A DNA stretch of 63,009 bases, the filler included, from Craspedostauros australis (taxonomy: Eukaryota): assembly GCA_030167865.1 (NCBI GenBank). It is 21 parts of 21 records of this genome, joined end to end, with 100 filler letters (N's around TTAATTAATTAA, not from the genome) between each part and the next. Parts side by side here need not be neighbours in the genome. Positions count along the whole stretch, not along the records: positions 14,313 to 22,574 come from JALAGF010002514.1; 20 more parts are not named here. One strand, given 5' to 3'. This document shows, piece after piece, positions 1 through 40,687 of this stretch. Under the pieces are notes generated by a model. That model saw nothing but the letters and a program-made list of their open reading frames with translations. It was not told the DNA's origin and did not search any database. Made by a program: the position numbers and the translations under genes. The first letter of the stretch is position 1. Each line of letters opens with the position of its first letter.

Positions 1-2792
1 CTGTGGCTCAATGATGTTCACGGAGTATGCGTGTTGTTCGATGTTGGCCCAATCCTTCTGTGGGATGCAGTTGTTGGTGTCAAGGATGTAGCTCGGGTCA
101 ACTGTTAGGGTGCTTTGGAGGATGGCTTGAAAGTCAGTTTCGCGCGTGTTGGGTACGTGATGGACTGGCTCGGTGCCTCCTTCTTGCACTCCAAGGTTAA
201 ATTGCTGAACTTCGAATCTGCTGGGTTGCTGCCATGGTCCTGGGCGAATGGTGCTGGTGTGCTGTCGCAAGGATTCGAACGCCAGCCGGTAGTTGTGGCT
301 CTGTCCGATTGCATTCCAGATGGAGAGGAACTTTGCCTTGAACATTGTTGCTCCGAGTCNGCATTCTGGAGGAGTGTGCCCTTCGTTCATCAGCGTTTCG
401 AGGTCGTCGGATTCGGCTGGATCACGAAGAGAGCTTGCAGCGAAGTCGAGCGCATCGAAGTGTGGGGTCATGATTCCTGTGAGCATGTATTTGCTCATGA
501 TCCCGAGGAACTTGCGCACAGCGTAGACTGTGACTTCGTTCTGTTGTTCCTCGAAGAGAAATTCGCACTCGCGATCCTCCATGATGTGGAGCTCCATGTC
601 CAGGAAGAAGTCTTCGTATAGATCTGTTACGTTGAATGGGGCGTCCTCGGTCATGTCTGATGGTTCTGGTTGCCACCAATCAACCATGTTCGCTTGAAAC
701 TCCTCAGGCTCCATTCTTGGCAAGTCGTTGACTGAAGCTTGTGGATTGAGAGTTCGGTAGCGTTGGCGGAGCTGGCGTAGCAATTGTAGTGAGTTGACCT
801 TGAAATCGTGAAGGTAGATTGAGAGAGGGTCACTGCCGTTTCGTTGCAGAAACTCAATTGTGTTCAGACAATCGATGACAGCTCGTGAGAATACGTGAAT
901 TGGATACGAATCTGGATGTATGTCAGATGTGGCGTCGTCTGATTCAATTTCTTCTTCAGCAGCCGTCGCAACACAGAGGAGATACTCATCACTATCGTCG
1001 TCTTCAAGCCACGCTGCCTTGCCTCCAAGGCGTCCATAGGTGAATCGCTGTGGCTCTTTGCGAATCCTGGTGCTCCGTTCTCGTTTGGGAGTAATCGTGG
1101 ACATTGGTGGAATCGGTGATGAGGTCGTGGTTTCTGGTATATTTGATGTTGGCATAGAGGACACGGGTTGAAGTGGTAGTGGAGCTGACTGATCTTTCTT
1201 CAGCGGATGAGGGAGCTGGTTAGAAGGTTCCCATTGCAGTTCTTGTGAAGCGGGGCGCTCTTGGAGTTCCTCGCCTTCACTTGGTGTAGGAGGATAGCTG
1301 AAGTCTCCCTCTGTCGAAGACAGTGGTTGATTCACTCCCTCTGAAGTTGACATTGGGGGGCCGGGGTCATCATTGATGAAACCTGCGTCCGTTTGCATCA
1401 TTGGTTTCTGCTTTGGAGCAGGTAGCGATGGTACCTCTGCGCCTTGATCGTCAGCGGATGGAAAGGGGATGTGAGGCGAAGTTGGAATGTTTGGTTCGAT
1501 CGCATCGTTTCGCTTCAATCGGCTATGGTCTATGAGGTCGGAGTTGAGGGTTTCTTCCTGCTCCATAGCCTCTACATCATCGTCATCAAATGGATACTGA
1601 AAGGTTGTATCACCAAACATGCGTGTCCATTCTTCTGATTGGTAGTTCGGCAGGTGTTTGGGATCAGTTGCTATAGTAGCGAACCAATCGTCGAACACCA
1701 CATGGAATTGAGGTGTGATGGATCCTGTTCGTGGTGAGAGAACCAAAGGCACTGTAGAGGCGTGCTTTTGTAGAGAGACCCACGTTGACGTATCGCTCTC
1801 CTCTTGGTTCCCATCGAGGTATCTTGCGTCCATCTGCGAGTGCTTTGTTGAACACGTACACAGGGCTGCCCCACACGTGTAGATTGTGGAGCTGTTTGAG
1901 TGGAAGTCGGACACGAGAGAGAACATCGTATGGAGTTAGTCCTGTTGCTGGATTGGGCACACGGTTGTAAATGTAAGCTGCGTGTACCACTGCCATNGGC
2001 CATAGCTGNGCATCAAACATGTCNGGCCAATGAATACTTTGGTGCATCATCATTGTTCGGGCCATNGACACGANGGTGCGGATGCTTCGCTCTGCTATGC
2101 CATTGTGATGGTGGGCTCCGACTCCGGCGAATCGATGGACTTGATGGAAGGCTTCGAGATGTTGAGTGTACTCGGGTGAAGTGAAGGTGGTAGCGTTGTC
2201 TGATAGGTAAGAGCGCACGGGCACGCCGACATCGCGACACATTAGCTCAAATCGCTCCTTGGCTTCTAGTGTAGCGTGTGTAGTCAGTGCTGCTACTGGT
2301 TCCACGTGAATGTAGCTCGATGCGTGATCAACGAAGATAGCTCCGCCCTTGTACATATCAATTGGGTCTCCTTTTCCTCTTCCTGTAAAGAGGCGGCCTG
2401 GTGTTCGTCCGACGAAGTGGTCTACTGACACTTGTTGGCCTGGGAACAGGTGGTCGGTCCGCAACACACCTTGTTTGTCACGCACGACATGTTGAGTTAT
2501 ACCTGGCGAAGGGCGCCGGTGTAACTTTCCAAACTGACATGCGGCACAAAGAGGGAGGTCGGTGACTTTGGCGGCTGCGGTGTGCATTTTTCGGGATGCT
2601 TCGGACCCTGTGAGAACACCTGAACGTAGAAGGAATTTCACTCTGTTGAAGGATAAGTGCCCGAGGCGGTAGTGCCAGCGGAGAAGCTCCTTTTGCGGTT
2701 GAGTGAGATTGACGTTGTGGTCTGACACGGTTGACACAATTGACGAGAGCGCTTTGGGTAGGTCGTGGATGTTGTCCGAGTTGTAACCAACT
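1..2792 (-). mobile_element. Ty1/copia (CoDi-like) retrotransposon pol fragment: pre-integrase Zn finger, integrase core and long INT-RT linker; one frameshift near 1770
   Basis: Motifs WHYRLGH..CAAC, SVDHF, SDNA and NGIAER in ORF 1664..2737. After a 1-nt indel at ACAAAAGCAC (~1770) the typical 'HASTVPLVLSPRTGSITPQFHVVFDDWF' continues, and that frame appears open to the window start. Confidence 0.9.
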
Positions 2793-2836
2793 NNNNNNNN
2801 NNNNNNNNNNNNNNNNNNNNNNNNNNNNNNNNNNNN

Positions 2837-2848
2837 TTAATTAATTAA
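2837..2848. other. Artificial contig linker N44-TTAATTAATTAA-N44, first of 20 (others at ~6324, 8065, 10040, 12356, 14257, 22619, 25068, 26265, 28555, 32997, 47091, 48317, 51602, 54334, 55571, 56808, 58278, 59649, 61741)
   Basis: Identical palindromic six-frame stop 12-mer centred in 100-nt N blocks; sequence content changes abruptly across each one. Confidence 0.98.
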
Positions 2849-2939
2849 NNNNNNNNNNNNNNNNNNNNNNNNNNNNNNNNNNNNNNNNNNNNCAGTGCCA
2901 TCTGCACACAATTCGCCGCTTCATCAAATGGAGTGGTCG

Positions 2940-4240
2940 CGACGGCAACGACAACAGCGACAGAGATAGCCACAGCAAGGCGATGGGCGACGAAAGCAAC
3001 AGCAAGGCGACGGCAGCGACGAAGGTAATGAAAGCGATGGCAAGGCGATGGGCGACGGCAACGGCAGCAAGACGATGGGCAACGAAAGCGACAGCAATGG
3101 CAAGGTGATGAGCGACAGCACCGACGAAAGCGATGAAAGCAACAGCAAGGTGATGGAGGACAGCAGTGACACAGATAGCCACAGCAAGGCGATGGAAGTG
3201 ACAGAAGTGATGAAAGCGACGGCAAGGCGACGGAGAACAGCAGCGACGAAAGCGACGGCAATGGCAAGGTGATGGGCAATGAAAGCGATGGCAAGGTGAT
3301 GGAGGACAGCAGTGATGAAAGTGATGAAAGCAACAGCAATGGCAAGGCGATGGGCAACAGCACCAACAAAAGCAATGAAAGCACGGCAAGGCGATGGGCA
3401 ACAGCACCAACAAAAGCGATGAAAGCGACAGCAATGGCAAGGTGATGGGCGACAGCACCGGCAAAAGCGATGAAAGCAACAGCAATGGCAAGGCGATGGA
3501 CAATGAAAGCGATGAAAGCGACAGCAATGGCAAGGCGATGGGCGACAGCACCAACAAAAGCGATGAAAGCGACAGCAATGGCAAGGCGATGGGCAACAGC
3601 ACCGGCGAAAGCGATGAAAGCGACAGCAAGGCGATGGGCAATGAAAGCGATGAAAGCGACAGCGATGGCAAGGCGATGGGCGACAGCGCCGGCGAAAGCG
3701 ATGGAAGCGACGGCAAGGCGATGGGCAATGAAAGCGACAGCAATGGCAAGGCGATGGGCGACAGCACCGGCAAAAGTGATGAAAGCAATGGCAAGGCAAT
3801 GGGCAATGAAAGCAATGAAAGCGACAGCAATGGCAAGGCGATGGGTGACAGCACCAACAAAAGCAATGAAAGCATGGCAAGGCGATGGGCAACAGCACCG
3901 ATGAAAGCGATGAAAGCGACAGCAATGGCAAGGCGATGGGCAACGAAAGCGATGAAAGCGACAACAATGGCAAGGCGATGGGCGACAGCACCAACAAAAG
4001 TGATGAAAGCACAGCAAGGCGATGGGCCACGAAAGCGATGGGCAACGAAAGCGATGAAAGCGACAGCAATGGCAAGGCGATGGGCAACAGCACCGGCGAA
4101 AGCGATGAAAGCAACAGCAATGGCAAGGCAATGGGCGACAGCACCAACAAAAGCAATGAAAGCATGGCAAGGCGATGGGCAACAGCACCGATGAAAGCGA
4201 CAGCAATGGCAAGGCGATGGGCAACGAAAGCGGCAGCGAT
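2940..4240. repeat. Modular minisatellite (~36-51 bp units built from GGCAAGGCGATGGGC / GACAGCACCGGC / GAAAGCGATGAAAGCGACAGCAAT)
   Basis: Dozens of shuffled copies visible directly; more degenerate at the left end. Confidence 0.95.
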
Positions 4241-4928
4241 AGGAAGGTTCGTAGTAGATCCACATTGCAACATCAAACCAAGTGTATTCTTTTGTTTCTT
4301 GATGCTTGTAGATATGTATACAATAGACTGGTGAGATGGACAAGACCAGAAAGAAAGATAAAAAGAGATCAGAGGGATACAACTGTAGAATATAACAGAC
4401 TGCCAAAACCACTCCAAATTGTTTGCTTCAACTGTTCACAACTCTGATGGTATGCCTCTCCTGGGGCAGACCCATCAATGATTGTGCGATCTATATCGTC
4501 AAAGGAGACAACTGCCTGTGCATTCAACATAGTTGAAGCTCCATTTGTCAATATTCTGCTCCACTGGTCCCAGTATCGAAAAATGTCGCAGGCGACATGT
4601 TGCAGATGGTATGTTTGACGCTCGGTTTTTCTGGGACAGCTGCTCATTTTGATGACACCCACAGGGCACATCACTTTGGAAAATGCAGACATGTGTGCAT
4701 ACAAGTACTGGCCTCTCAGGTGTGCTGTGGGCTTTCCACCATCATCGTCCTCCTCCTTCTCTTCGTCGTGTCTGTTGCGATCTCTCAGGCTGCGGTTCTT
4801 GGGGCTGTCCTGTTCCTCGTCACATGTCCAGAAACACTCAGCAAGCACCAATTCCAACAGTATCTTCGATTGTCTATATCAAACCACCCATCACCCTCCT
4901 TCGTTTGCCCTGACACCACCTTCGGATC

Positions 4929-8162: not shown

Positions 8163-9094
8163 TTATATTGGATCGAAGTAATCCCCTAGGTCATGAAGGG
8201 ATAGGATGAACCCTCCTACGCTGATTCTTGTGTTCTTGTCTCCTGCATATTCGCTATCGCAGAAGAGCTCCATGTCCCAGCCGTCGTCGTCTGGACGCGC
8301 TGGATGGATCTTCAATCTGTAGTGTTGTGTATTGATCACGTATTTGATGATCCGATACATCTCCTTCATTGCGGCCTTGGTGGGCCCGATCAATACCTTG
8401 GAGAGTTCTCTCACGGGGTTCGCGATATCTGGTCGCGAGTGCTTGATGAGGAAGAGTAGCATACCAACGCCTTGGCGGTATTCAGCATGTTCTTCCGGTC
8501 CGACCTTCTGTAGTCCGTTGTCTTGGGATGGTCGTACGATGATTTGACCTGGGGTTCCCGGTGTTGTATAGCGTTGCATCTTTTCAACCTTGGTTCCGAA
8601 CTCTTCAATGAGGTGTCAGATGAGATGTGGTTGACGCAACGTTGCTCTAGTCTTGTCATGGTTCAACTCGATGTTGCAACTGAGGTAGTCGCCGAGTCCG
8701 CGCTCGATGGTTACCTTGAACTTGCTGCCTTGGATGTCCTTCAGGAATCCCTCCAATGCCTTGGAGTCTCCGCAGCAGAAGCAATCGTCCACGTAGATGG
8801 CTACAATCATGCTTCCTTCGTTCGTCTTCCTGTAGAACAGGCACGGGTCTGCTTTGCTCTGTTCGACGTTGATGTTCTTGAGGGTCAACACCAACATCTT
8901 GAACCACTGCCTGGCGCTCTGCACAAGTCCGTAGATTGGCTTATGTAGGGTCAGGGCTTCGTCTGGTTGATAATCCATCCCATCAGGACAGTTCATGTAG
9001 ATCTCCTCATCGAGGTCTCCGTGTAGGAATACCGTTACGACGTCGACGAGTGAGCAGTCCATCTTCTTGATCAGCATGATCACCATCATGACTC
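8163..9094 (-). pseudogene. Degenerate Ty1/copia RT and start of RNase H
   Basis: VDVVTVFLHGDLDEEIYM, KPIYGLVQSARQW, IYVDDC, SRPDIA, FCDSEYAGD; frameshift near 8616; interrupted at 9095 by an LTR. Confidence 0.92.
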
Positions 9095-9574
9095 TGTCGA
9101 GATGTACATGTGAGTATATGTCGAGATGTACGTGTATGTGCATCGTTCACCTGTTATTCTCTCATACGCACTTGAACGGTACAACTACATTCGTGACGAT
9201 AGTATGCTGTGATTCGTCAGAATTGCAGAGGAAATGGAACACACGGAAATGAGCAGAATGTCTGGAGGAAATTTGCAATCGACGATTTCTGGGAGAATCA
9301 GAATATCGTCCGTCCATGCATCAATGGTACCAAGCGAATCTCGAGGTACTTCCCAACTAAACCTGAGATGACGATACCATCTGACAGACTACTGCATCAC
9401 CAATGGAACGTGACATCTGGAGAGCAGAAGGACACCTACTGACGTCGACAGGATGTCATCATGTCACCATGTCAACATCTGTCTCCATGTCAGAGCAAGA
9501 GGCAAAGATCTGATGACCGAAGGACATCGAGATCATGGATACAGGAGGTGAAGTTCAAATGGTAAGTACTCATG
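9095..9574. mobile_element. LTR family A, left part, inserted in copia RT
   Basis: Starts TGTCG where RT homology to the sister copies (54390+) stops; highly similar to 28611-29075 and 12412-12548. Confidence 0.75.
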
Positions 9575-14080: not shown

Positions 14081-14312
14081 AGATTTATCACTCGTTGCAG
14101 CTGGATCTGGACCGTCCCAAGGTAGGTGCATGCCCATGACCGATGTCAGTATGCAATATAGTTGGTTTAACCCTCTCCTCGTCTTCCGCAGAACAGGATT
14201 CATCAACACCATNNNNNNNNNNNNNNNNNNNNNNNNNNNNNNNNNNNNNNNNNNNNTTAATTAATTAANNNNNNNNNNNNNNNNNNNNNNNNNNNNNNNN
14301 NNNNNNNNNNNN

Positions 14313-17300
14313 GTCGATGTGCCGAAAATACAGAGCCACAGGTGTCTGTTTCGTGCAAATGTCGGATGCATTCAAGTCTGATGCGACTTCTGGGTACGTC
14401 AGGAGATCTCTCTCCACCCAATCGAGGACCGCGAACTCTCGGATCGCTATGTGGCGCGAATTCCGGGTAGGCTGACTGGCGCTGGCCATCAGCCGAGCAC
14501 CGCGATTGTCCTCGAAGATCATAGTCGCATACTGTTGCTTCACTCCAACTTCATCGAGAATGGACCGAAGCCACAAGGCCATGCGGCCAGCATCGCTGGC
14601 AGCAACGAACTCGGCCTCAGTGCTGCTGAGGGAAACAGTGGGCTGTACCCGCGTCTTCCACGCAACGGCGGCGCCTCCAAGCATGTAGATGATGCCGGTC
14701 ACCGAACGCCGATGTCGAATGTCGACCCCCCAATCCGCATCAGTGTACCCATACAGAGTGGAAGCATCGAGCTGTTGTATGCCAGTGACATCATGAATGA
14801 CATCGTCCGCAGGGGATAGCCGGACAGGATGTGGCGCCTGGGGTAGACCCACGAGCGGTCGGACACGCCAATATGTCACGCCATGGTCACGCGTGCCAGC
14901 AACATACCGCATGAGGTATTTCACCCCTTCGAAGTGTAGAGCAGCAGGGTTGGTGGAGAACTGCGAGAGCTTGACGACAGGGAATGATATGTCTGGTCGG
15001 CACGATATCATGGCCCAAATCAACTCGCCAATGGCCTGTCGATAACCAAACTTGAACTGGCTCGCCACTCGTCGGCGCTCGTCATCATCACCTGGGAGGT
15101 CAGCCTTGTCCAAGCTCTTAACGTAGGAATTGTCGGATCTCATAGGCAGCCGTTGAGTGGTCTTGAAGTTCTGCCACTGATACCTCTCCAGCATCTTGTC
15201 AACGTAGGACGTGCAATGGACCTTGACGAAGTCTTGTGTTTGGTCGATGTCTAATCCATTGTAGTGCACCACCAGCCCTTGTCGCGTCATGGGTTGAAAG
15301 AGGTGCGCATCGAGCGAGTCACAGAACTTGTTGAAGACACCCTCGGTGGAGGTCGCGACCGCAAAATCATCCACTTGTCGGAGCACGTAGACTTTGGACG
15401 CATCGACGCTTCCCACGTACAGGCATGGAGCATGCGTGGTACCGTGGAACCCCATCTGCCGTAAGAGACCATTGACGTGGTTGCTCCACTGTCTGGGTGC
15501 TTCCGGATGTCCCTGAAGATTCTTGTGGACGGGAATGACAGCTCCTCGTGGCATGACCTTGCCTCGCCGTTTCTCCCACCAAGAGCGATACTGGTCATCG
15601 ACTCTCATGTAGTACCGTTGTTCCCCAGCAGGAGCTTCAGCGAAGGCATTGGTAACGTCTGATCCGTACACCCGGAGCCCTTGCACTGCCGCAATTGCCA
15701 GAAGAATGCGGAACTCCGTCAAATCCGGTGTAGCAGCGTAGGTGTGCCCAAAAATGCGAGCATGGCCTCCACGCGTTGATCCATCGCAAACCGCTCGAGC
15801 TTTCTTCCGGTTATTCTCGTGCGTTTTGACGACGTACACCCACACCCAGTTGAACACAGCAGCCTGAGCAGGCGGTAACACTGGTTCACCGAATATCTGT
15901 TGTGCATCGTACTGATCGAGCTGCTTGTCCTCGGCCGCGCTCCATTCAGGCCAATCATCTTGTTGCCGCAGCATGCGTCGAGTCAACTTCGTCGGAGCAT
16001 TCGTGACGCTGGTAGCGTGTGCCGTGGGACGCGCGGACTCGATGATGTCCCTCACATGTCGGAGTTGATCGAAGTACAGCTGGGGCACACCAGTTTGCGA
16101 CATCGCGTTGCGTACATCGTCGAAAGCGAACACGAATGTGGCACTGGCAGCCTTGTTGGCACGAAGGCGATCGATGCACTCCTTCAGCTGGTCGAGTGTG
16201 TGAATGGAAGTCTCGTTCACCGCAAGGAGATGCGAGTGTCGAAGCCGCGACCGCCACCTCGGAATGCGAGCAGAGGGCTGGCCAGACCTGCACATCACCA
16301 GCACAAGACGGTCACGCTGGTCATCGTAATCGAACTCCAACCCAAGCGTGGCATCCGTGCCGGCGATCGCAATCTGTTGGTCGAAGCTGAACCCAAACGG
16401 ATTGTCGGCCATCTCAATGTCCACTGCATGTGTTGCGTTCGTAGTTTGGCAACTAGCAGCGGATGCATGTTGTGCAGCCCTGTCAACCAAATCTCCGAGG
16501 GGCAGTGGTATTCTGCACGCGATGGCAGGCGCCTTCGTGTACTTGACCCTGGCAGGCGGGTATGCAGCAGCATCCACGACGCGACCACGAGGTGCATCTG
16601 CACTCGGTTGCTCGAAGCCCAGATCGAAGAGAAGCTGTGGGCCAGGCGGTCGGTCGGACGACATGAAATGCGCCTCATCGAAGACAATATTCCCAGCTCG
16701 CTTGAACCGACCTGTCTGCAAGTCGTAGTACTCGTGCAGCGACGGCGTGGCGGTATGCCCAACAAAAACGCCATCGTATGTATGGATGTCAAGTTTGGCG
16801 GCAGCCTTCCCAGGCTTCTTCACCGTGACACGAGACCCGAAGACTCGCAAGTGCGAAAGGTCTGGCACCACCCCATGCTGGCGTTGATATGGTGTCATGC
16901 CAATGGTGGAGTGATGCAACCGGTTCTTGAGGTAGACCGCATGTGCGAGAGCCTTCGACCAGAACTGCGGGTGCATGCCTGACGAGTACAGCAGAGCTCG
17001 CACCATGGTGCCAAATGTACGGTTGAGTCTTTCGACTTTGCCGTTCATCCAAGCACAGTCGGCTCCGGTGGGCTCCACAGAGTATCCACACTCCAAGACC
17101 ATCTCTCGAAACTGATCGGACCGCGCGAGCTCGCCTCCCAAGTCAACACGAACCGCACGATAGCCGTCCTTGCGCCCGAAAGAAGAGAGCACATGCCTGA
17201 CAGCCGAGATCGGTGGTGACTTGTCCTTGGTCATGAACACCCACACATACGCCGTGTATGCGTCCACGACGAGGAGATACGCGCAGTATCCATCAATGGA

Positions 17301-18245
17301 CTGGACCACCCGAGGAGTGTTGCGGTTGGGTCGTCCTTTGCCATACTCCGCACTGGACGCGCGCATGAACCCAAAATCCACATGGAAACGCGCGCCTGGC
17401 ACATTGGCAGTGGTAGAATCGTTGGGTCCACGCACAGCGTGCTGGTAGCCTGCTTGACTGCATGTGTCACAGTGTCTCAGGGGATGGATGCCCTCACTAG
17501 CAGCAGCGGGTATGCCTGTGGCGCACTTCGCCAGTCGACTCAGCTGGCTCATGCCAACATGTCCCAGACGAAGGTGCCACAGCTCCGAGATGAGGGCCTT
17601 GGACGCTCTCCGAACAGAGAAAACTTGCGAGGACGGACCTTCAAAGTAGTACAGTCCGTTCCTCACCACCAAGGGTACCACCACTGGACCCGCGTCCGAC
17701 GTGAAGACGACTCGAGCACCAGCTGGATTGGACTCGACGCAGAAGCCGCGAAAGTCATTGTCGGATTGTCTGACAATAGCTTGCGGGGAAACCAGCGTGT
17801 CAGCCAGCTGGGGGCAGTGCAACATGTGTACATCCACATGGCGCTCGCTGTCTCCATGCAACTGCATGACTCCAGCACCTGGGCACGCCATGGCTTGAGC
17901 AGAAGCATTGGCAGCCTCCAAAAGGACCGGCGTGGAGAACGTGCGGTACCCTTGCAGGAGCTGCTGGTGCGGTGTAGCACAGACATTGGCTCCAGGATCG
18001 CATTGGCCACCGTCTTGCGTTCGCCATGCTCGGCCGCCGTAGGATCGGGATTGGACCGCAAAAAGCTGTAACTCAGCATGAGCCACGACGGGCACGAGCT
18101 TGGACGGACGCCCGCAGGGGTAGGCTTGAGTAAGCGAAGACACCTCTCCATGTGGAGCGCCTACCGGTGTCTTGCATTCACTGGAAATGTCGTGTAGCTG
18201 TTCACCAGGAAGCGAAGTTATTCCTGGCCAGCAAGCACAAAATCC
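14313..18245 (-). CDS. pol: Pol polyprotein (protease, integrase, PDZ-like insert, RT, RNase H) in -1 frame relative to gag
   Basis: CDPGAN; LWHLRLGH..CDTC; HVDFG/RVDLGGE/NGKVER; KARAVCDG; RQVDDF; YTDADWG..STEAE..EDN. The frame is open from the GGATTTT site to the gap. Confidence 0.93.
18197..18245 (-). promoter_or_regulatory. Candidate -1 programmed ribosomal frameshift signal (G_GAT_TTT, 6-nt spacer, stem-loop)
   Basis: Heptamer 18245..18239 is in gag phase (CAG GAT TTT); hairpin GCTG-GCCAGGAA/TTCCTGGT-GAA-CAGC at 18232..18197; a -1 shift enters the pol frame. Confidence 0.8.
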
Positions 18246-19921
18246 TGAAGCAGCATTTGTGCCACGCGTTCGGCGACATCGTCATCGTCCATCGCACCTT
18301 CGGCGCCAAGGTCGGCACTGGTAACTTGGAGAGCACGGGCAAAAGCTCGAGACTTGTCCTGCGTGTACGTGTCCTTGAATTTCTCCAGCACCTTGGATGC
18401 CAGGTCCGGCTTGGATTCTCGAAGCTCGGCGAAAGCAAGATGACGGGCCCAGTTGAGGCACGAATCCGCTTTGTGTCCACCTTGACGGCAGGCTGCACAG
18501 AAAGCGTCCTTGTCCGGTTGATAGAAAGCAGATCGCTTGCGCTCACCTCTGGGCCCTCCTTGACCTCCCTGCCGAGCAGACGACCTGGTCTGAACACGGT
18601 GTCCAACTGGGCGATGGGCCGCAGTGGGATCGGGGTGAATGGACCGGGCCAAGGCGGATACGTGCAGATGCGGAGGTACACGCTTGGAGTGAGGTTGAAG
18701 CTCCAACGATGTGATGAGGTGCCCAACGTCCATGCCGCTGGCTCGCAGATCCTCGAGGAACCGTCGCGAGAGCTCCACATCAGTGAAATGTCGCTTGTGT
18801 ACCACGGTCTCCGTCTGCTGAAATGCGAGAAGCGCATCAGCATAGAGCACGATATCCTTGTACTCCGAGTACACAGGGGCTTGGCTCACGGTGCGTTCGA
18901 TACGCTGAAAAGCGTCCAGCAGCACCTGATGGAGAAGGAGGTACCCAGACAGCCGGTGCGGGATGACTCCAAAGCACGCCGTGTGGTAAATCTTCACAGA
19001 CGGGTTGTCCAGATCGAGGACGCCATCCTCCTGGAGCTTGCGATTGAGATGGACTCCAGACCGGAAGACGATGTCCCGAGGGGCATTCTTGGGGATGAGG
19101 GAGCACCGCGGGTTGAAGTGCGAAAGAGGCACGAGCACCACGCCAATGCGATCCGCCTCCCCTTGAAGTTGGGTGTACCATTTGAGCACACTGGCAGGGT
19201 CGTCAACGGACAACTGGCTGGTCCAGCGCTGCCAGTAACCCAAGGCATCGCGATCGGGCTCCAGAGGAGACAGGACAGCCTCGTAGGTAAAGTGTGCGGT
19301 GGCGGCAGGGTTGCCATTGGCTGCCGAGTAGGGCAGTCCGGATCCAGTGATGTAGTCGTGCGGCGCCGGCGGCGTAGTCACAGGAGGAGCACCGGAGATG
19401 TCCAGCGGAGTGTCCTCGGTGGCACCATGTGGGCCTTCACGCGGCGAAGGTGTCGCATCACCTGCCAAAGTCGGTCCGTAGTGGCCGGCCACATCGGGGG
19501 CAGTACCACCGGTCTCAGAAGGATTTGGGCCGGCAGGTGGTGGCTTGAGCGCCGCGTCGGCAGCTGGAGGCGGAGGTCCCTTGCCAGTTGTTGGAACAGC
19601 AGAAGGCTTGCTGTCGCGCTTGTATGTGCGGAGAGTGTCACGGTCGAGCGTCGAAGCCCACGACTCAACATCGGGATTGTCGCGATAGTACGCGCGGAGC
19701 TGGCGGAGACCAAACTCGCGAGTGGGAGAGTTCTTTGCCCAAGCGGCAAGAAACCCGTCGAATGCGTCATCGTCCAACTCGAGGAAGTCCCAAAGATCAA
19801 GGGTGTCCTGAATGTTGGCGCCAGTGACGAAGAGACCAGCCCAATGCCAGTTGAGGCGGGCGAAGAGGGTCGTGAGACCTTTGAGTTCGTCAGAACCGAG
19901 AGGGTCGTTTTTGGCGGGCAT
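18218..19921 (-). CDS. gag: Gag protein with CX2CX4HX4C zinc knuckle
   Basis: First in-frame ATG after the PBS (MPAKNDPLG); CAACRQGGHKADSC; ends QDFVLAGQE*. Confidence 0.85.
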   Translation of the reverse strand: MPAKNDPLGSDELKGLTTLFARLNWHWAGLFVTGANIQDTLDLWDFLELDDDAFDGFLAAWAKNSPTREFGLRQLRAYYRDNPDVESWASTLDRDTLRTYKRDSKPSAVPTTGKGPPPPAADAALKPPPAGPNPSETGGTAPDVAGHYGPTLAGDATPSPREGPHGATEDTPLDISGAPPVTTPPAPHDYITGSGLPYSAANGNPAATAHFTYEAVLSPLEPDRDALGYWQRWTSQLSVDDPASVLKWYTQLQGEADRIGVVLVPLSHFNPRCSLIPKNAPRDIVFRSGVHLNRKLQEDGVLDLDNPSVKIYHTACFGVIPHRLSGYLLLHQVLLDAFQRIERTVSQAPVYSEYKDIVLYADALLAFQQTETVVHKRHFTDVELSRRFLEDLRASGMDVGHLITSLELQPHSKRVPPHLHVSALARSIHPDPTAAHRPVGHRVQTRSSARQGGQGGPRGERKRSAFYQPDKDAFCAACRQGGHKADSCLNWARHLAFAELRESKPDLASKVLEKFKDTYTQDKSRAFARALQVTSADLGAEGAMDDDDVAERVAQMLLQDFVLAGQE

Positions 19922-21680: not shown

Positions 21681-22674
21681 TGCACTCCCCCAATTGGATT
21701 GATGAGAGAAAGCCATCGCAGATTGGTGCAAGAGAATCTACAGCATTCACATTATAGTAGTACCAGTCACAAACAAAGCCAAGGCAACATGCTCGTACCC
21801 AGTGCTGGAATTCATGATCTCGCATGACGGCGGATTGCAACGGAAGTTGATTTCGCATACTCTGTGCTCTCTTCCGCAGGAGACGTGGTGTGCGCGCATA
21901 CGCCATGCCCATAATCGCCTTTGCGACGACTACTCCGCGATGAGCGAGACAGAATAAAGATGGGCGAGGTGTATCGCGAAAGCTGAGGATCCTAGAATTA
22001 GTTGATAGTTGCATTTTTGAACGATCGTCGTCGCCCTCGCAATTCTTCTTGGAGCTGATTGCATTGCGCTGCTTGTCTCGAATCAAAATTCCCGTACGCT
22101 CTTCATCTCTCCCAGCCCGAAGAGACTTCGCGATACCAACCTGCCCTGGGCTGCTTTCGTGCCATCAGATTCAATCCACACCGGCTGGTGGACACAAACT
22201 GCTTGGGAGGACAAGAGCGAAATCCATTTCGGTGGTGTATTTATGGTAGTATAGCTGTGCCATGATTTGGAGAGATGCAATTGTGGGCGTTGGTGAGACC
22301 TTCATAGCTTGTGTGTGCGAAAACAAATTGCGAAGCACCGTGATCTTGGCATGTCAGTCAGGAGCATTGTGCGAATAAAGCGAAAGACGAGAACAAAAAT
22401 CAATCGCGGCCGCCCTGCGTCATAATTCCGCGCACAGTAGTGACGTACCGTAACCCACAGACCATCAATTCTGCACTTGGTCACATTTTGTTCCGGCGAG
22501 TGGCAACGACGCAAATCTGATGCCATTTGAAGCATGTACGTGCATGTATTGGTACCGAACCGCAACATGCTTCCNNNNNNNNNNNNNNNNNNNNNNNNNN
22601 NNNNNNNNNNNNNNNNNNTTAATTAATTAANNNNNNNNNNNNNNNNNNNNNNNNNNNNNNNNNNNNNNNNNNNN

Positions 22675-36357: not shown

Positions 36358-39051
36358 TCATCCACGCAAATTCTTGTGTTCCACCGACAATGGCATTGGC
36401 ATTGCTGCTGCAGCCACTGGAACGTCCAACTCAAACATTCCAAGACGACCATTCATTGCTGACGGACAATCCTCCGGCACGGGCAATGGGCAGATGGGAT
36501 CGAATTCGTAGTTGTACAGCTCGCCGCCCGCCACATCCATGCACAGATCGCCGGCCACGATCATGCGTCCGCTGTGACCAGGAAAGGTGATGTTCACATC
36601 GCCGAACGGCACCACGACGCTGCCTCGGAATTGGCCGTTGCCCAGCAACCCATCTCCCAGCACGACCGTGTCCGTGGCGTTGTAGAAATTCCACAAGATG
36701 TTGGCCGTCACGTCGCTGTCAAAGTCAAAGTCCGTGTTGCCGAACGGGTCGATGAACTTGGCGATGTTGGCGATCGTCACGATGCCGTCAGCGGATGCGG
36801 CGACGTTGATCAGGACCGTCTTGCACGACAGAGTCGAATCGAGCTGGATCAGAGTTCCGAAATCGCGAAAGTCGAGGTCGTCGTGTTCCAGATGGAAGAC
36901 CTGCAAGCAGTCATCATCACCGGCGAGCAATTCGACGCGGTTGCCCGTGAAGTGCTCATCGCGCGAAATGAAGACGCCGTTGGCGGGGAGTTCGGACCAG
37001 TACTTGGATTTGGTCTGCAGGTCGGTGAGGGCCGTGGTGTATTTGTCGAGGTTGACGGGCGACTGCTGTTGCGTGATGTTGCCGCCCAAGGTGGTGATCT
37101 TTCCCGTGCCCGTGTTGTCGCCACCGTACACAACGTTCACTCGTTGCAAGATGGCAACATCCTTGCGGATATCCAGATCCTGACCCACGAGCAGCACATC
37201 CGTGCCATCGTTGGGAACGACCTGAGATCCAAATCCGGCGCGCACCAAGGAATTGAATCCGGACACGATGCGGAAGCTTCCCACCGTCACGATCTTACCT
37301 TCGATTTCGGCACCGTCCTTGCCCACGAAGTCGCCACCGACGAGGACGGAGACCGAATCGTCGCGTCCCAGCGGGACGAGGCTGGTTTGGATCTTGGGGT
37401 ACGTGGTGACGTTGCCACTGCCTTCGCTGAAGCAAGCGCCAAGGTTTGGTGGGCAGGTAGATGTGACATTGGTCGGTGGCAGACAGATGCACATCCCGGC
37501 GATGGCTGGTCCGGATAGGGCAGCGCTGGGTGCCAGGGTTGGCGCTGGCGTTGGGGTCGGTGCCATGCTGGAAAGCGAATCGAGGTAGGTCTCCGTCCAC
37601 AATTCGTCTTCCTCAAGAACGCTGTCGGCAATTGCGTTGGCCAGATCTTCCTCAATCGTGCTCGTCTTGACGATACAGATACCTTCGGTCGCGAACATGG
37701 GCGTGGGTGCCTGCGATGGGACTTGCGATGGCTGGGATGTGGCTTCGGGAATGGGACAGAGCTCAGGGAGAGGCAATGGGCAGAAAGGATCGAATTCGTA
37801 GTTGTGCAATTCGCTGGACTGCCAATCTTGGCAGACGTCGCCCTGCACGAGGATACGCCCGCTGTGTCCCGGGAAGGAGATGGTCAAGCTGCCGTGCGGA
37901 ACGAGCAGGCTGCCTTGGAACTGGCCGTTGCCGGTGAGGCCGTCACCGAGGATGACCTCTTGTGCATCATAGAAGTTCCATAGGATGTTGGCGGTGGTAT
38001 CGGCGTTGAACTGAAAGTCGGTGTCGCCGAATGGATCGATGAACTTGGCGAGATTGGCAATAGTCGCGGTGCCGTTGGCGTCGCTCTTAATGTTGAGGAG
38101 GATGGTCTTGTCTGCCAAGTTGGGATTGAGCTGCACCAAGGTCCCGAAATCGCGGAAGTTGAGATCATCGGAATCGATGTGGTAGACTTGGAGGCAGTCG
38201 GTGTCCCCGGCGAGAAGCTCGACGCGATTTCCAGTTGGGTGTTCATCGCGCGTGATGAAGATGCCGTTGGCTGGGAGGTTGGACCAGAACTCAGCCTTGA
38301 CCTTTGCATCCTCGAGGATGCCCCTGTACTTGGCGAAGGAAAGGCTGCGATCGCGTGTGACGTTGCCCTTCGTAAAGATGGCACCTTGACCGAGGTTGCC
38401 GCCTCTGTGCACGACGTTGACACCGTCTCCGGAGAAGGAAACAGTGATGTCGGTATCCATTGCGAGGTTGCCACCGACGATGACGGCGTCTTCACCATCG
38501 TTCGGGATGACATTCGAGCCAAAACCAGAACGAACGAGCGAAGTGAATCCCGAACCGCTGAGGATGTTGAAATCTCCTATAGTCACAATCTTCCCTTCGA
38601 TCTCAACCCCCCGCTTGCCGAAGAAGTTCCCGCCGATGAGAAGGGAGACAGAATCGTCACGGCCGAGAATGTTTGGCCCTGCTTGAATGAGTGGGTAGGT
38701 ATCCAGGCTTCCAAGTCCGGTACCTTCGCTGATGCAATCACCAAGGTTCGGTGGACAGTTGGTGGTGGAGGATGGCGTAGGTGTTGGGCACACACAAAAT
38801 CCTGGTGTGTATGCGGTAGGAGCGCCAGTAGGTCCAGCGATGGTGGCAGCCGTTGGTTCTGAGGTTGGCGGGAGGCTCGAGATGGTATCGGAGAGGGTCC
38901 GCAACCACACGGATTCCTCCTCCAACTGGGCTTGATCGACATCATGATCGATGTTGAGGATGGGACCAGCGTTGGAGTTCCATCCTGAAACCCATCCGGG
39001 ATGGAGAAGGAGGGATGCCGGAAGCAGGCTCAAGGGCAAAGAAATCTTCAT
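36358..39051 (-). CDS. Secreted protein with two tandem choice-of-anchor A (ice-binding-like beta-solenoid) domains; trailin-like adhesin candidate
   Basis: Signal peptide MKISLPLSLLPASLLL; LRTL (RXL) site; PT-rich linkers; duplicated domain DSVS.L.GG.F...EIEGK...ANILWNFY.A...QF.GS...P.G...GHSGR...EL.NYEFDP. Confidence 0.85.
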   Translation of the reverse strand: MKISLPLSLLPASLLLHPGWVSGWNSNAGPILNIDHDVDQAQLEEESVWLRTLSDTISSLPPTSEPTAATIAGPTGAPTAYTPGFCVCPTPTPSSTTNCPPNLGDCISEGTGLGSLDTYPLIQAGPNILGRDDSVSLLIGGNFFGKRGVEIEGKIVTIGDFNILSGSGFTSLVRSGFGSNVIPNDGEDAVIVGGNLAMDTDITVSFSGDGVNVVHRGGNLGQGAIFTKGNVTRDRSLSFAKYRGILEDAKVKAEFWSNLPANGIFITRDEHPTGNRVELLAGDTDCLQVYHIDSDDLNFRDFGTLVQLNPNLADKTILLNIKSDANGTATIANLAKFIDPFGDTDFQFNADTTANILWNFYDAQEVILGDGLTGNGQFQGSLLVPHGSLTISFPGHSGRILVQGDVCQDWQSSELHNYEFDPFCPLPLPELCPIPEATSQPSQVPSQAPTPMFATEGICIVKTSTIEEDLANAIADSVLEEDELWTETYLDSLSSMAPTPTPAPTLAPSAALSGPAIAGMCICLPPTNVTSTCPPNLGACFSEGSGNVTTYPKIQTSLVPLGRDDSVSVLVGGDFVGKDGAEIEGKIVTVGSFRIVSGFNSLVRAGFGSQVVPNDGTDVLLVGQDLDIRKDVAILQRVNVVYGGDNTGTGKITTLGGNITQQQSPVNLDKYTTALTDLQTKSKYWSELPANGVFISRDEHFTGNRVELLAGDDDCLQVFHLEHDDLDFRDFGTLIQLDSTLSCKTVLINVAASADGIVTIANIAKFIDPFGNTDFDFDSDVTANILWNFYNATDTVVLGDGLLGNGQFRGSVVVPFGDVNITFPGHSGRMIVAGDLCMDVAGGELYNYEFDPICPLPVPEDCPSAMNGRLGMFELDVPVAAAAMPMPLSVEHKNLRG

Positions 39052-40687
39052 GTTGCGATTGGGTGGGGTCGAACCGGTGGGAAGAACTGAATTGTGAGCA
39101 GTCGATAGGCAAGACCAGGAAGTCTGGTGTGGAGCAGTTGGATTTGCGTTGTGTTGTGGTGTGATGTGATGTGCTGCGTAATCCATGCGATGCGATGAGC
39201 AACGCGGAAGAGTCAAGGGAGAGCATTGGATGTGGTGAAGGTTGGCCGATGGAGCTTGAATCCCACCGGTGGCTTCAGTTTGCTGATGGATCGATATGCT
39301 TCCTCTTGTCTTTGTCTTGATTTTGGGAGCACATCTTTCCCACGCGCAGCCTTCATCATGCTGCCTCTCGCTCGCTCCCACGTGCGCACATGTGCACATG
39401 CATACATGAAGCCATATCCTGCCTGTCTTCTGTGGGATATTGGTGCCGTTGACCATGCCTCGTCTATCATCTGATCGCCACCTCCGTCGCCAACCTCCAC
39501 TCCCTTTCTTCACCTCTCGCCAACAGGCTCTGTCTATCCTCCTGTGTCTTTCGCTGCTCACTGCTCGCCGCTCGCTTCTTCCTTCTCACGGCTCACCCAT
39601 CGCTCCTTGCATTCCCATCTACCCACCACCAATCCCGCCCTCGCTCTTTCCCTCCCACTGTCTCCCTCGCTTCCCCTCGTCTCTCTCGACTGCAGAAATC
39701 GGCGACGACCCCGTCAAACACCCATCAGCAATCATTGGGAATCACCAAAGACAAAGATAAAGGCAAACACAAGCAGACCCAACAGTCGAAGAACCGACCA
39801 AGTCAACATGCGCAAACACACAAAGCCAGAAAGTGGCAACGGATTCCCGGTGGTGCCGGTTTGCAATCCCATCGCAGAAACGAATGGGACATGTGGCGGC
39901 TTCAGCTTGACATTGAAGGGGGGATAATCCTCGCTATGTCCATCGCCGGAGGAGTTGGAGTTGTCATCGCGTGCAAGACAATTGCCTAACAATGTATAAC
40001 ATAATAGAATGGATGAACGATGCCGTCCCTCTCTGGTGGGAGCTCAGCCCTCCGACAATGTGTGTGTTCCTCATGAGTCGATCCCAAGAAGGGCCGTTTT
40101 GCCTCATTGTCCCAGTTTTATGGTGTATGGAAGTTTCTGTAGAGTGGGACAATAAGTGGTAGCATCTTCTTTGTGTGGTGACTGGATGGATACGCGTGTG
40201 TGTGTGAATGTGTGGGTGGGGAGGCACCCCACATCCTCGTACCGTCCGAGTAGTCTGGAGAACACTCGCGACTTTGATGCAAGTGTAGAGCAAATGAAGA
40301 GATCAACGGTCGTTGTTGTGTATTTGTCTTTGTGTGGCTTGGTGGGAATCTGCACGCGTGTCGCATTTTGTCGTTCGTGACACGAAGAAATTGATTTGGC
40401 GCCATTTTGGTTTTCATTCGAGATGGTCCATACATACAGTGTGCAACGAGTGTAGAGAGCAGAGTAGATCTGGAGCACGGTTTTGGGTGGATGCATGGGG
40501 CAAATGTCAAAGCAAAGAAGGGAGCTTGAGTAAAGCATAGTAGAGTAGAGTATATCAATCGTACATCACAAGAGAGAGTTGGAGTGTATTACAATTGATG
40601 ACACTCTTACGTGCACACGCTCGTACTTGCCATCGCCTCCCCCGCGTCGCTCAATGTCTTGGTACGCACCATAGAGTAGTCCGGAGC

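Follow-up and report, generated by a model that had tools for sequence, protein, structure and literature searches.

A conserved candidate -1 frameshift signal at the gag-pol junction of a Ty1/copia element from Craspedostauros australis

Programmed -1 ribosomal frameshifting is not new as a mechanism, and the recoding of Gag into Gag-Pol is its textbook use. The Ty1/copia superfamily of retroelements is better known for single open reading frames (ORFs), splicing and +1 shifts. Drosophila copia and most plant Ty1/copia elements carry a single gag-pol ORF and set the ratio of the two products by splicing or proteolysis, and yeast Ty1, Ty2 and Ty4 shift in the +1 direction at a 7-nucleotide (nt) hungry-codon site that needs no downstream structure. 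Here we describe the gag-pol junction of a Ty1/copia-type element from Craspedostauros australis (assembly GCA_030167865.1), located on the minus strand of one contig (14313-22574, from JALAGF010002514.1) within a stretch of 63,009 nt, referred to as the window, along which all positions are counted. Comparison with relatives indicates that this element very probably makes Gag-Pol by programmed -1 ribosomal frameshifting, at a GGAUUUU heptamer followed by a bulged hairpin, and that this route is ancestral to its copia lineage.

In sequence design, the closest described counterparts are signals of plant RNA viruses. For Pea enation mosaic virus 2 (PEMV2), the excerpted text of PMC4737148 bears out the statement of an earlier note on this DNA, made from the sequence alone, that GGAUUUU is a functional -1 site in such a virus: in wheat germ extract, shifting is lost or reduced when the U run or the GAU is mutated, re-pairing of the A-site tRNA is complete, and a mismatch in the P site is tolerated. 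The PEMV2 stimulator is a bulged hairpin adjoining the 0-frame stop, and in viruses related to PEMV2 this stop stands directly after the heptamer or one codon later (excerpts of PMC4737148 and PMC5009743). RCNMV, the Red clover necrotic mosaic virus, also undergoes -1 frameshifting with a bulged hairpin (PMC4737148, same excerpt), and GGAUUUU is called a -1 site in toti-like and other viruses as well. As far as the excerpts describe PEMV2, RCNMV and Barley yellow dwarf virus (BYDV), the element described here has in common with them that its hairpin is bulged and that the 0-frame stop falls at the hairpin or beside it, and its heptamer is identical to that of PEMV2. It differs from them in that they are RNA viruses making an RNA polymerase, in that their spacer is 5 nt as opposed to 6 nt in the copia element, and in having no sequence relationship to them. 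A further trait of these Tombusviridae-type recoding elements is pairing of the hairpin bulge with a distal 3' sequence, and in the copia element the corresponding 3' end lies outside the assembly. The earlier note names dianthoviruses, too, as users of GGAUUUU.

In function, the nearest systems are retroviruses and many animal Ty3/gypsy elements, and a survey of 2003 placed pol in the -1 frame in 28 of 51 animal elements (as summarised in the excerpted text of PMC5009743). There as here, pol lies in -1 and overlaps the end of gag, with a slippery heptamer, a spacer of 5-9 nt and a downstream structure, and the purpose would be the same, namely a small share of Gag-Pol. In contrast to those systems, the element described here is of Ty1/copia type, with the integrase before the reverse transcriptase, its heptamer is the non-canonical GGAUUUU rather than X_XXY_YYZ, and its structure is a simple bulged hairpin without a conserved pseudoknot partner. 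With yeast Ty1, Ty2 and Ty4 it shares the superfamily and what would be a Gag-Pol fusion made by recoding in a short overlap, although the shift is +1 there and pol is in -1 here. With Drosophila copia and most plant Ty1/copia elements it shares the superfamily and the order of domains, whereas gag and pol form two ORFs here, both in this copy and throughout the lineage. By analogy, the cassette would be a gag-pol -1 signal of the retroviral/gypsy type in function, with a sequence design that resembles the umbravirus signal. Copia-like elements of diatoms, termed CoDi, have been described with lengths of 5.2-8.1 kb (Maumus et al. 2009, PMC2806351); they are copia-type elements of marine microalgae, and the comparison with them is one of description. 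No slippery site or structure is named for CoDi in the main text of that paper, and in the literature covered no -1 frameshifting is described in diatom or other copia elements; the supplement of PMC2806351 and Gao et al. 2003 may hold prior knowledge.

The junction is read in the gag frame as CAG GAT TTT GTG CTT GCT GGC CAG GAA TAA, exactly to the base as the earlier note had quoted it at this place on the minus strand. From 18245 to 18197 the minus strand is GGAUUUU GUGCUU GCUG GCCAGGAA UAACUUCGC UUCCUGGU GAA CAGC. The two frames and the parts of the cassette are as follows.

18218..19921, minus strand: gag ORF, 567 amino acids (aa) plus a TAA stop at 18220-18218; 33 relatives by HMMER
14313..18281, minus strand: pol frame, -1 relative to gag, 1323 aa, open up to the contig end and the linker at 14312
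18218..18281, minus strand: gag/pol overlap of 64 nt, the pol frame being closed upstream by a TGA at 18284-18282
18239..18245, minus strand: slippery heptamer G_GAU_UUU, in phase for tandem slippage, with GAU as Asp560 and UUU as Phe561
18233..18238, minus strand: spacer GUGCUU, 6 nt, between heptamer and hairpin
18197..18232, minus strand: bulged hairpin of 12 base pairs (bp), from the ViennaRNA fold
18232-18229 with 18200-18197, minus strand: lower stem GCUG/CAGC, 4 bp, from the fold
18228-18221 with 18211-18204, minus strand: upper stem GCCAGGAA/UUCCUGGU, 8 bp, from the fold
18203-18201, minus strand: GAA bulge, 3 nt, on the 3' side, from the fold
18220-18212, minus strand: loop UAACUUCGC, 9 nt, opening with the gag stop UAA
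17999-17988, minus strand: protease motif DPGA, at pol residue 95

The heptamer (18245-18239) has the phase that had been claimed for it, with the 6-nt spacer directly behind it at 18238-18233, and the stem-loop with a 3-nt bulge and the gag stop in a 9-nt loop was recovered as the minimum-energy fold of 60 nt in ViennaRNA (-19.5 kcal/mol, z = -2.9, 4 of 200 shuffles equally stable); folded alone, the hairpin has -14.4 kcal/mol. Within a 191-nt context it is kept in both the minimum-energy and the centroid structures (z = -1.9). Pseudoknot prediction had been proposed alongside folding, and here the outcome was divided: the hairpin is predicted, but no conserved pairing of the loop with downstream sequence was found within about 140 nt, the window having one 5-nt match 124 nt away and the distant relative L001, described below, having none. 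A search of Rfam matched zero families at E up to 10.

A -1 slip at the heptamer would give the peptide ..QDF-CACWPGITSLPGEQ.. and lead into the pol frame, which is open for 1323 aa. The long open frame stands as the earlier note had it. It has no natural end: from stop to stop the frame runs from 18281 to 14265, and its end falls in the artificial linker entered at 14312. The first Met of the frame is residue 131, downstream of DPGA at residue 95, in agreement with the claim that no ATG precedes the protease active site, and a pol initiated independently would therefore be without a whole protease. The junction accordingly combines an overlapping -1 ORF that lacks its own start for a complete product, an in-phase heptamer and a structure 5-9 nt downstream. 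By our own arithmetic, the chance of a canonical X_XXY_YYZ heptamer standing in phase within about 21 codons is roughly 4%, which in combination with the 4 of 200 shuffles is suggestive only; the case for a frameshift signal comes from the comparative data rather than from such estimates.

These data bear first on the possibility that gag and pol were ancestrally a single ORF and that either a 1-nt indel private to this copy or a fault of assembly, for instance in the T run, broke the frame, with heptamer and hairpin present by chance. The assembly is a draft whose short contigs are joined by artificial linkers, a T4 run lies inside the heptamer, and the window holds no second copy of the element, all of which would suit such an error. 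Sister copies with gag and pol in one frame, which the earlier note had set against the -1 reading, did not appear among the relatives found, however. The last 558 aa of gag (from Ser10), used as an HMMER query without length limits against 1.84 billion representatives, gave 33 gag relatives of 160-882 aa, not one of them fused to pol (0/33), and several of the alignments extend to the last residues of both proteins. With the N-terminal 420 aa of pol, searched against proteins of 735-2342 aa, 15 relatives of 902-1710 aa were obtained, and a gag-pol fusion was again found in none (0/15); the ten closest (42-48% identical, 902-1556 aa) start shortly before the protease motif with no gag ahead. 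Moreover, Gag ends in 17 relatives at the homologous point just past an Asp-Phe pair, and the -1 layout, the heptamer and the hairpin are shared by L001. An indel or assembly error is largely refuted by these comparisons, and we consider it extremely unlikely.

The DNA of L001 is a 3717-nt metagenome contig that encodes the protein P0029 exactly. It was recovered in a metagenome scan with the pol alignment that gave at least 594 pattern matches and at least 129 relatives, 80 of which were kept, with patterns that also match bacterial integrases. Among the 144 loci examined by tblastn, gag is present only in L001; L002-L005, L008 and L009 end short of the gag-pol junction. L001 is a distant relative. 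Its identity to the window element is 24% in gag (361 aa) and 42% in pol (342 aa, from the protease motif on). Its gag occupies 459-2567 and its pol 2507-3715, in the -1 frame with a 61-nt overlap, and its junction reads CCG GAT TTT TAC AAA GCC GGT CAG TAA. An identical GGAUUUU stands in phase at 2543-2549 and is followed by a 6-nt spacer and by a hairpin with a lower stem GCCG/CGGC of 4 bp, an upper stem GUCAGUAA/UUACUGAU of 8 bp, a GAA bulge and a 6-nt loop (-16.7 kcal/mol, z = -3.24, 2 of 200 shuffles equally stable).

Both checks that the earlier note had put forward for relatives, conservation of the heptamer and covariation of the stem, are borne out by this pair. All 12 pairs of the helix are standard in both sequences, 9 of them unchanged, 3 changed in a compensatory way (from window to L001, U-A to C-G, C-G to U-A and G-C to U-A) and none broken, while the spacer differs at 6 of 6 positions and the loops differ in length (9 versus 6 nt) and in sequence. 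Flanking identity is 15/60 downstream and 24/60 upstream. In the pol frame the compensatory changes replace residues (..CW.. becoming ..SR.., and Q becoming R) and are thus more than silent drift. Such a pattern is the one expected of a selected RNA helix, on the basis of two sequences, and together with the unchanged heptamer it suggests a site that is conserved and a structure that covaries in relatives, with DNA from one of them. The peptide ..(T/N)D(E/N)ERL.. also recurs at the pol ORF starts of relatives (L001 2574-2593, P0005, P0009), with ..PGEQL.. as the window version. This peptide is what the 3' arm, the GAA bulge and the lower stem encode in the pol frame, so that it may be a second protein shadow of the hairpin.

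At the level of proteins, 17 of the 33 gag relatives have Asp-Phe among their last 12 residues, against a background in the same proteins of 0.0031 per position (42 in 13,433). The pair is followed by no residue in 2 of the 17, by one residue in 8 and by 4-7 residues in 7, so that the stop directly after Asp-Phe (2/17) and the stop one codon later (8/17) reproduce the two arrangements that the excerpted sources describe for PEMV2-related viruses. Nineteen gag sequences were aligned, at a mean identity of 24%. Apart from two other columns, only the C, C, H and C of the zinc knuckle and the Phe of Asp-Phe are invariant among them; the Asp is kept in 18 of 19. All 17 relatives with the pair have A, E, S, P, Q or T immediately before it, residues that each have a codon ending in G, as G_GAU_UUU needs, whereas at positions -16 to -2 before the motif 40% of residues are of kinds without such a codon. 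We take the gag-terminal Asp-Phe to be the protein shadow of GAU_UUU.

A second alternative accepts that the ORFs are separate throughout the lineage and has Pol made by another route. Its RNA could be spliced or subgenomic, translation could reinitiate or begin internally, or transcription could slip in the T run; Asp-Phe would then be conserved for its peptide, for example as a site of protease cleavage at the Gag C-terminus. Conservation of Asp-Phe is on its own a protein-level observation, Drosophila copia sets its Gag:Pol ratio by splicing, and L001 has an AUG 25 codons ahead of its protease motif. However, both DNAs have G-GAU-UUU and not its synonymous alternatives, for which our own arithmetic gives about 1 in 128 under uniform codon choice; two gags end at Asp-Phe itself and eight one residue later, which leaves no conserved peptide after the motif; and the hairpin covaries while spacer and loop drift. 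In the window, moreover, the pol frame has no AUG ahead of the protease motif, and T4 and T5 runs are short for transcriptional slippage.

Splicing in particular is addressed by an assembled transcript from a transcriptome set of marine microbial eukaryotes, on which the gag P0020 (ending ..YEDFCNAGQE) and the pol P0006 are two ORFs. In this relative, then, there is an RNA that carries the two frames unjoined, and the splice that the earlier note had listed as an alternative for joining the frames is not needed, though the transcript leaves room for a minor spliced form. Taking these points together, we regard another route to Pol as unlikely. An attempt to derive the frame offset from codon compatibility between gag C-termini and pol N-termini was dropped, as the matched pair P0020/P0086 has no overlap, the P0086 pol call beginning near or after the P0020 gag stop.

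Under programmed -1 frameshifting, most ribosomes would translate gag from 19921 to 18218 and stop at the UAA at 18220-18218, seven codons past the heptamer, releasing the 567-aa Gag. A fraction would be made to pause by the bulged 12-bp hairpin, which starts 6 nt downstream and would be positioned at the mRNA entry channel, at a moment when GAU is paired with tRNA-Asp in the P site and UUU with tRNA-Phe in the A site. Both tRNAs could then re-pair one base back on GGA_UUU, perfectly in the A site and partially in the P site, and the partial re-pairing would be tolerated as it is for GGAUUUU in Pea enation mosaic virus 2. Translation would continue in the pol frame as ..QDF-CACWPG.. through protease, integrase, reverse transcriptase and RNase H, giving, across the junction ..QDF/CACWPGITSLPGEQ.., a Gag-Pol fusion that has reached at least 1870 aa where the contig ends, and the rate of slippage would set the ratio of Gag to Gag-Pol.

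The cassette could also have worked in the lineage at one time and survive here in a dead, truncated relic in which frameshifting no longer takes place. The 3' end of the element and its LTRs (long terminal repeats) lie outside the assembly, as they might in a relic, but both ORFs are free of stops (gag over 567 aa, pol over 1323 aa to the contig end), and the truncation coincides with an artificial contig join and not with a mutation. We consider a dead relic very unlikely.

Several points weigh against a working -1 signal in this element or its generality in the lineage. The copy is incomplete, with its 3' end and any LTR pair outside the assembled contig, and the z-scores of the fold are modest (-2.9 in the window and -3.2 in L001). 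Asp-Phe is missing from the last 12 residues of 16 of the 33 gag relatives; ten of these are fragments whose match ends before query residue 500, and six reach residue 509 or beyond (P0026, P0030, P0046, P0049, P0050 and P0048, the last with Asn-Phe in place of Asp-Phe). The gag relatives are akin to one another, so that their counts are not independent trials, and DNA comes from one relative only, which makes the covariation a comparison of two sequences. The upper 5' arm and the bulge lie within coding sequence, where protein constraint could explain part of the conservation. Finally, slippage itself, its rate, the hairpin as its stimulator and the role of the bulge are read from sequence and from likeness to other systems. 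With these points counted, programmed -1 frameshifting is still the reading that we hold to be very probable for the element and its lineage.

A broader proposal, to which we give an even chance, is that G_GAU_UUU and a hairpin with a conserved GAA bulge are the ancestral and still working Gag-Pol route across a deeply diverged Ty1/copia clade of marine microbial eukaryotes, within which gag identities go down to about 20%. If true, a whole clade would depart from the single-ORF and +1 rules of the Ty1/copia superfamily, and its module, a non-canonical heptamer with a bulged hairpin and a 0-frame stop next to it, would be the one that umbra-, diantho- and luteo-like plant viruses employ. Such a likeness would suggest that both converged on a single optimal design, or perhaps that retroelements and RNA viruses exchanged it long ago. 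A conserved -1 signal in a copia lineage would fill a gap in the map of recoding. It would also supply a rule for annotating algal and protist genomes, a gag ending in x-Asp-Phe followed by a hairpin, by which such elements could be called as one gene product instead of two 'hypothetical proteins' or a pseudogene. With its natural covariation, the cassette of about 50 nt could serve as a test bed for non-canonical GGAUUUU slippage in a eukaryotic microbe.

Among the pol relatives, P0013-P0015 form a more distant copia-like branch (29-31% identical, 1655-1710 aa) with a dUTPase domain ahead of the integrase region, and P0046, P0049 and P0050 are distant gag matches without an Asp-Phe end that are alike in their Asn/Asp-rich composition. 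The dUTPase-bearing branch may express pol differently, its putative tie to these three gags being one of composition alone. In other collections, a scan of genome contigs gave 63 loci, bacterial or from metagenome-assembled genomes, with only short integrase-like matches, and a scan of viral contigs with the pol alignment gave a single 45-aa match. The cassette pattern had 31 matches in the viral contigs, none of them (0/31) encoding a gag or pol relative, so that these matches are due to chance.

The assignment of the element to Ty1/copia, made in the earlier note, is supported by the order of its domains, with the protease motif DPGA followed by Pfam matches to gag_pre-integrs, integrase SH3 and RVT_2, as in the Ty1/copia order of protease, integrase, reverse transcriptase of the RVT_2 type and RNase H, and by a Gag with a CCHC zinc knuckle upstream of pol. 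Gag starts with MPAKNDPLGS and ends with ..LLQDFVLAGQE; the AUG at 19921 is most likely its start, in agreement with the N-termini of relatives. In a Pfam search Gag matched no family. The remaining features of the element are as follows.

18458..18499, minus strand: CCHC zinc knuckle CAACRQGGHKADSC, gag residues 475-488, its C, C, H and C invariant in 19 of 19 aligned sequences
17657-17451, minus strand: gag_pre-integrs (Pfam), pol residues 209-277
16874-16665, minus strand: integrase SH3 domain (Pfam), pol residues 470-539
15851-15159, minus strand: RVT_2 (Pfam), pol residues 811-1041

An LTR pair was sought by BLASTN of the contig against the window, which gave no repeat of the contig, and the 3' end of the element lies beyond the join at 14312. 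The window is a chain of short contigs with 20 artificial joins, each composed of 44 N, TTAATTAATTAA and 44 N (for example 14213-14312 and 22575-22674). The TTAATTAATTAA linker puts stops in all six frames, so that ORFs 'end' there, and contigs that stand side by side need not be adjacent in the genome.

Elsewhere in the window, two distant copia-like pol fragments lie at 1667-2791 and 8292-9128, both on the minus strand, with a gag_pre-integrs match (E = 1e-10), with 20-26% identity to the pol of the element and with their gag-pol junctions outside the assembly; in the BLASTN comparison the first of them appears as 1853-2677. A search of the window for further gag relatives returned none besides the element's own gag. 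At 2895-4435 on the minus strand there is a repetitive low-complexity stretch in which all three minus-strand frames are open and motif runs such as AVAHRLAIAVAFIAF, PSPCHCCRFHRF and LSLSSLLPIALP occur; it has no Pfam match and is not a gag relative. The other ORFs of the window are ordinary eukaryotic genes, including RING finger proteins, a cyclophilin-RING protein and an Asp/Asn hydroxylase with a MYND finger. An intronless ORF of 1075 aa at 36361-39585 on the minus strand matches the Pfam 'putative ice-binding-like adhesive domain' (PF20597, E = 3e-45).

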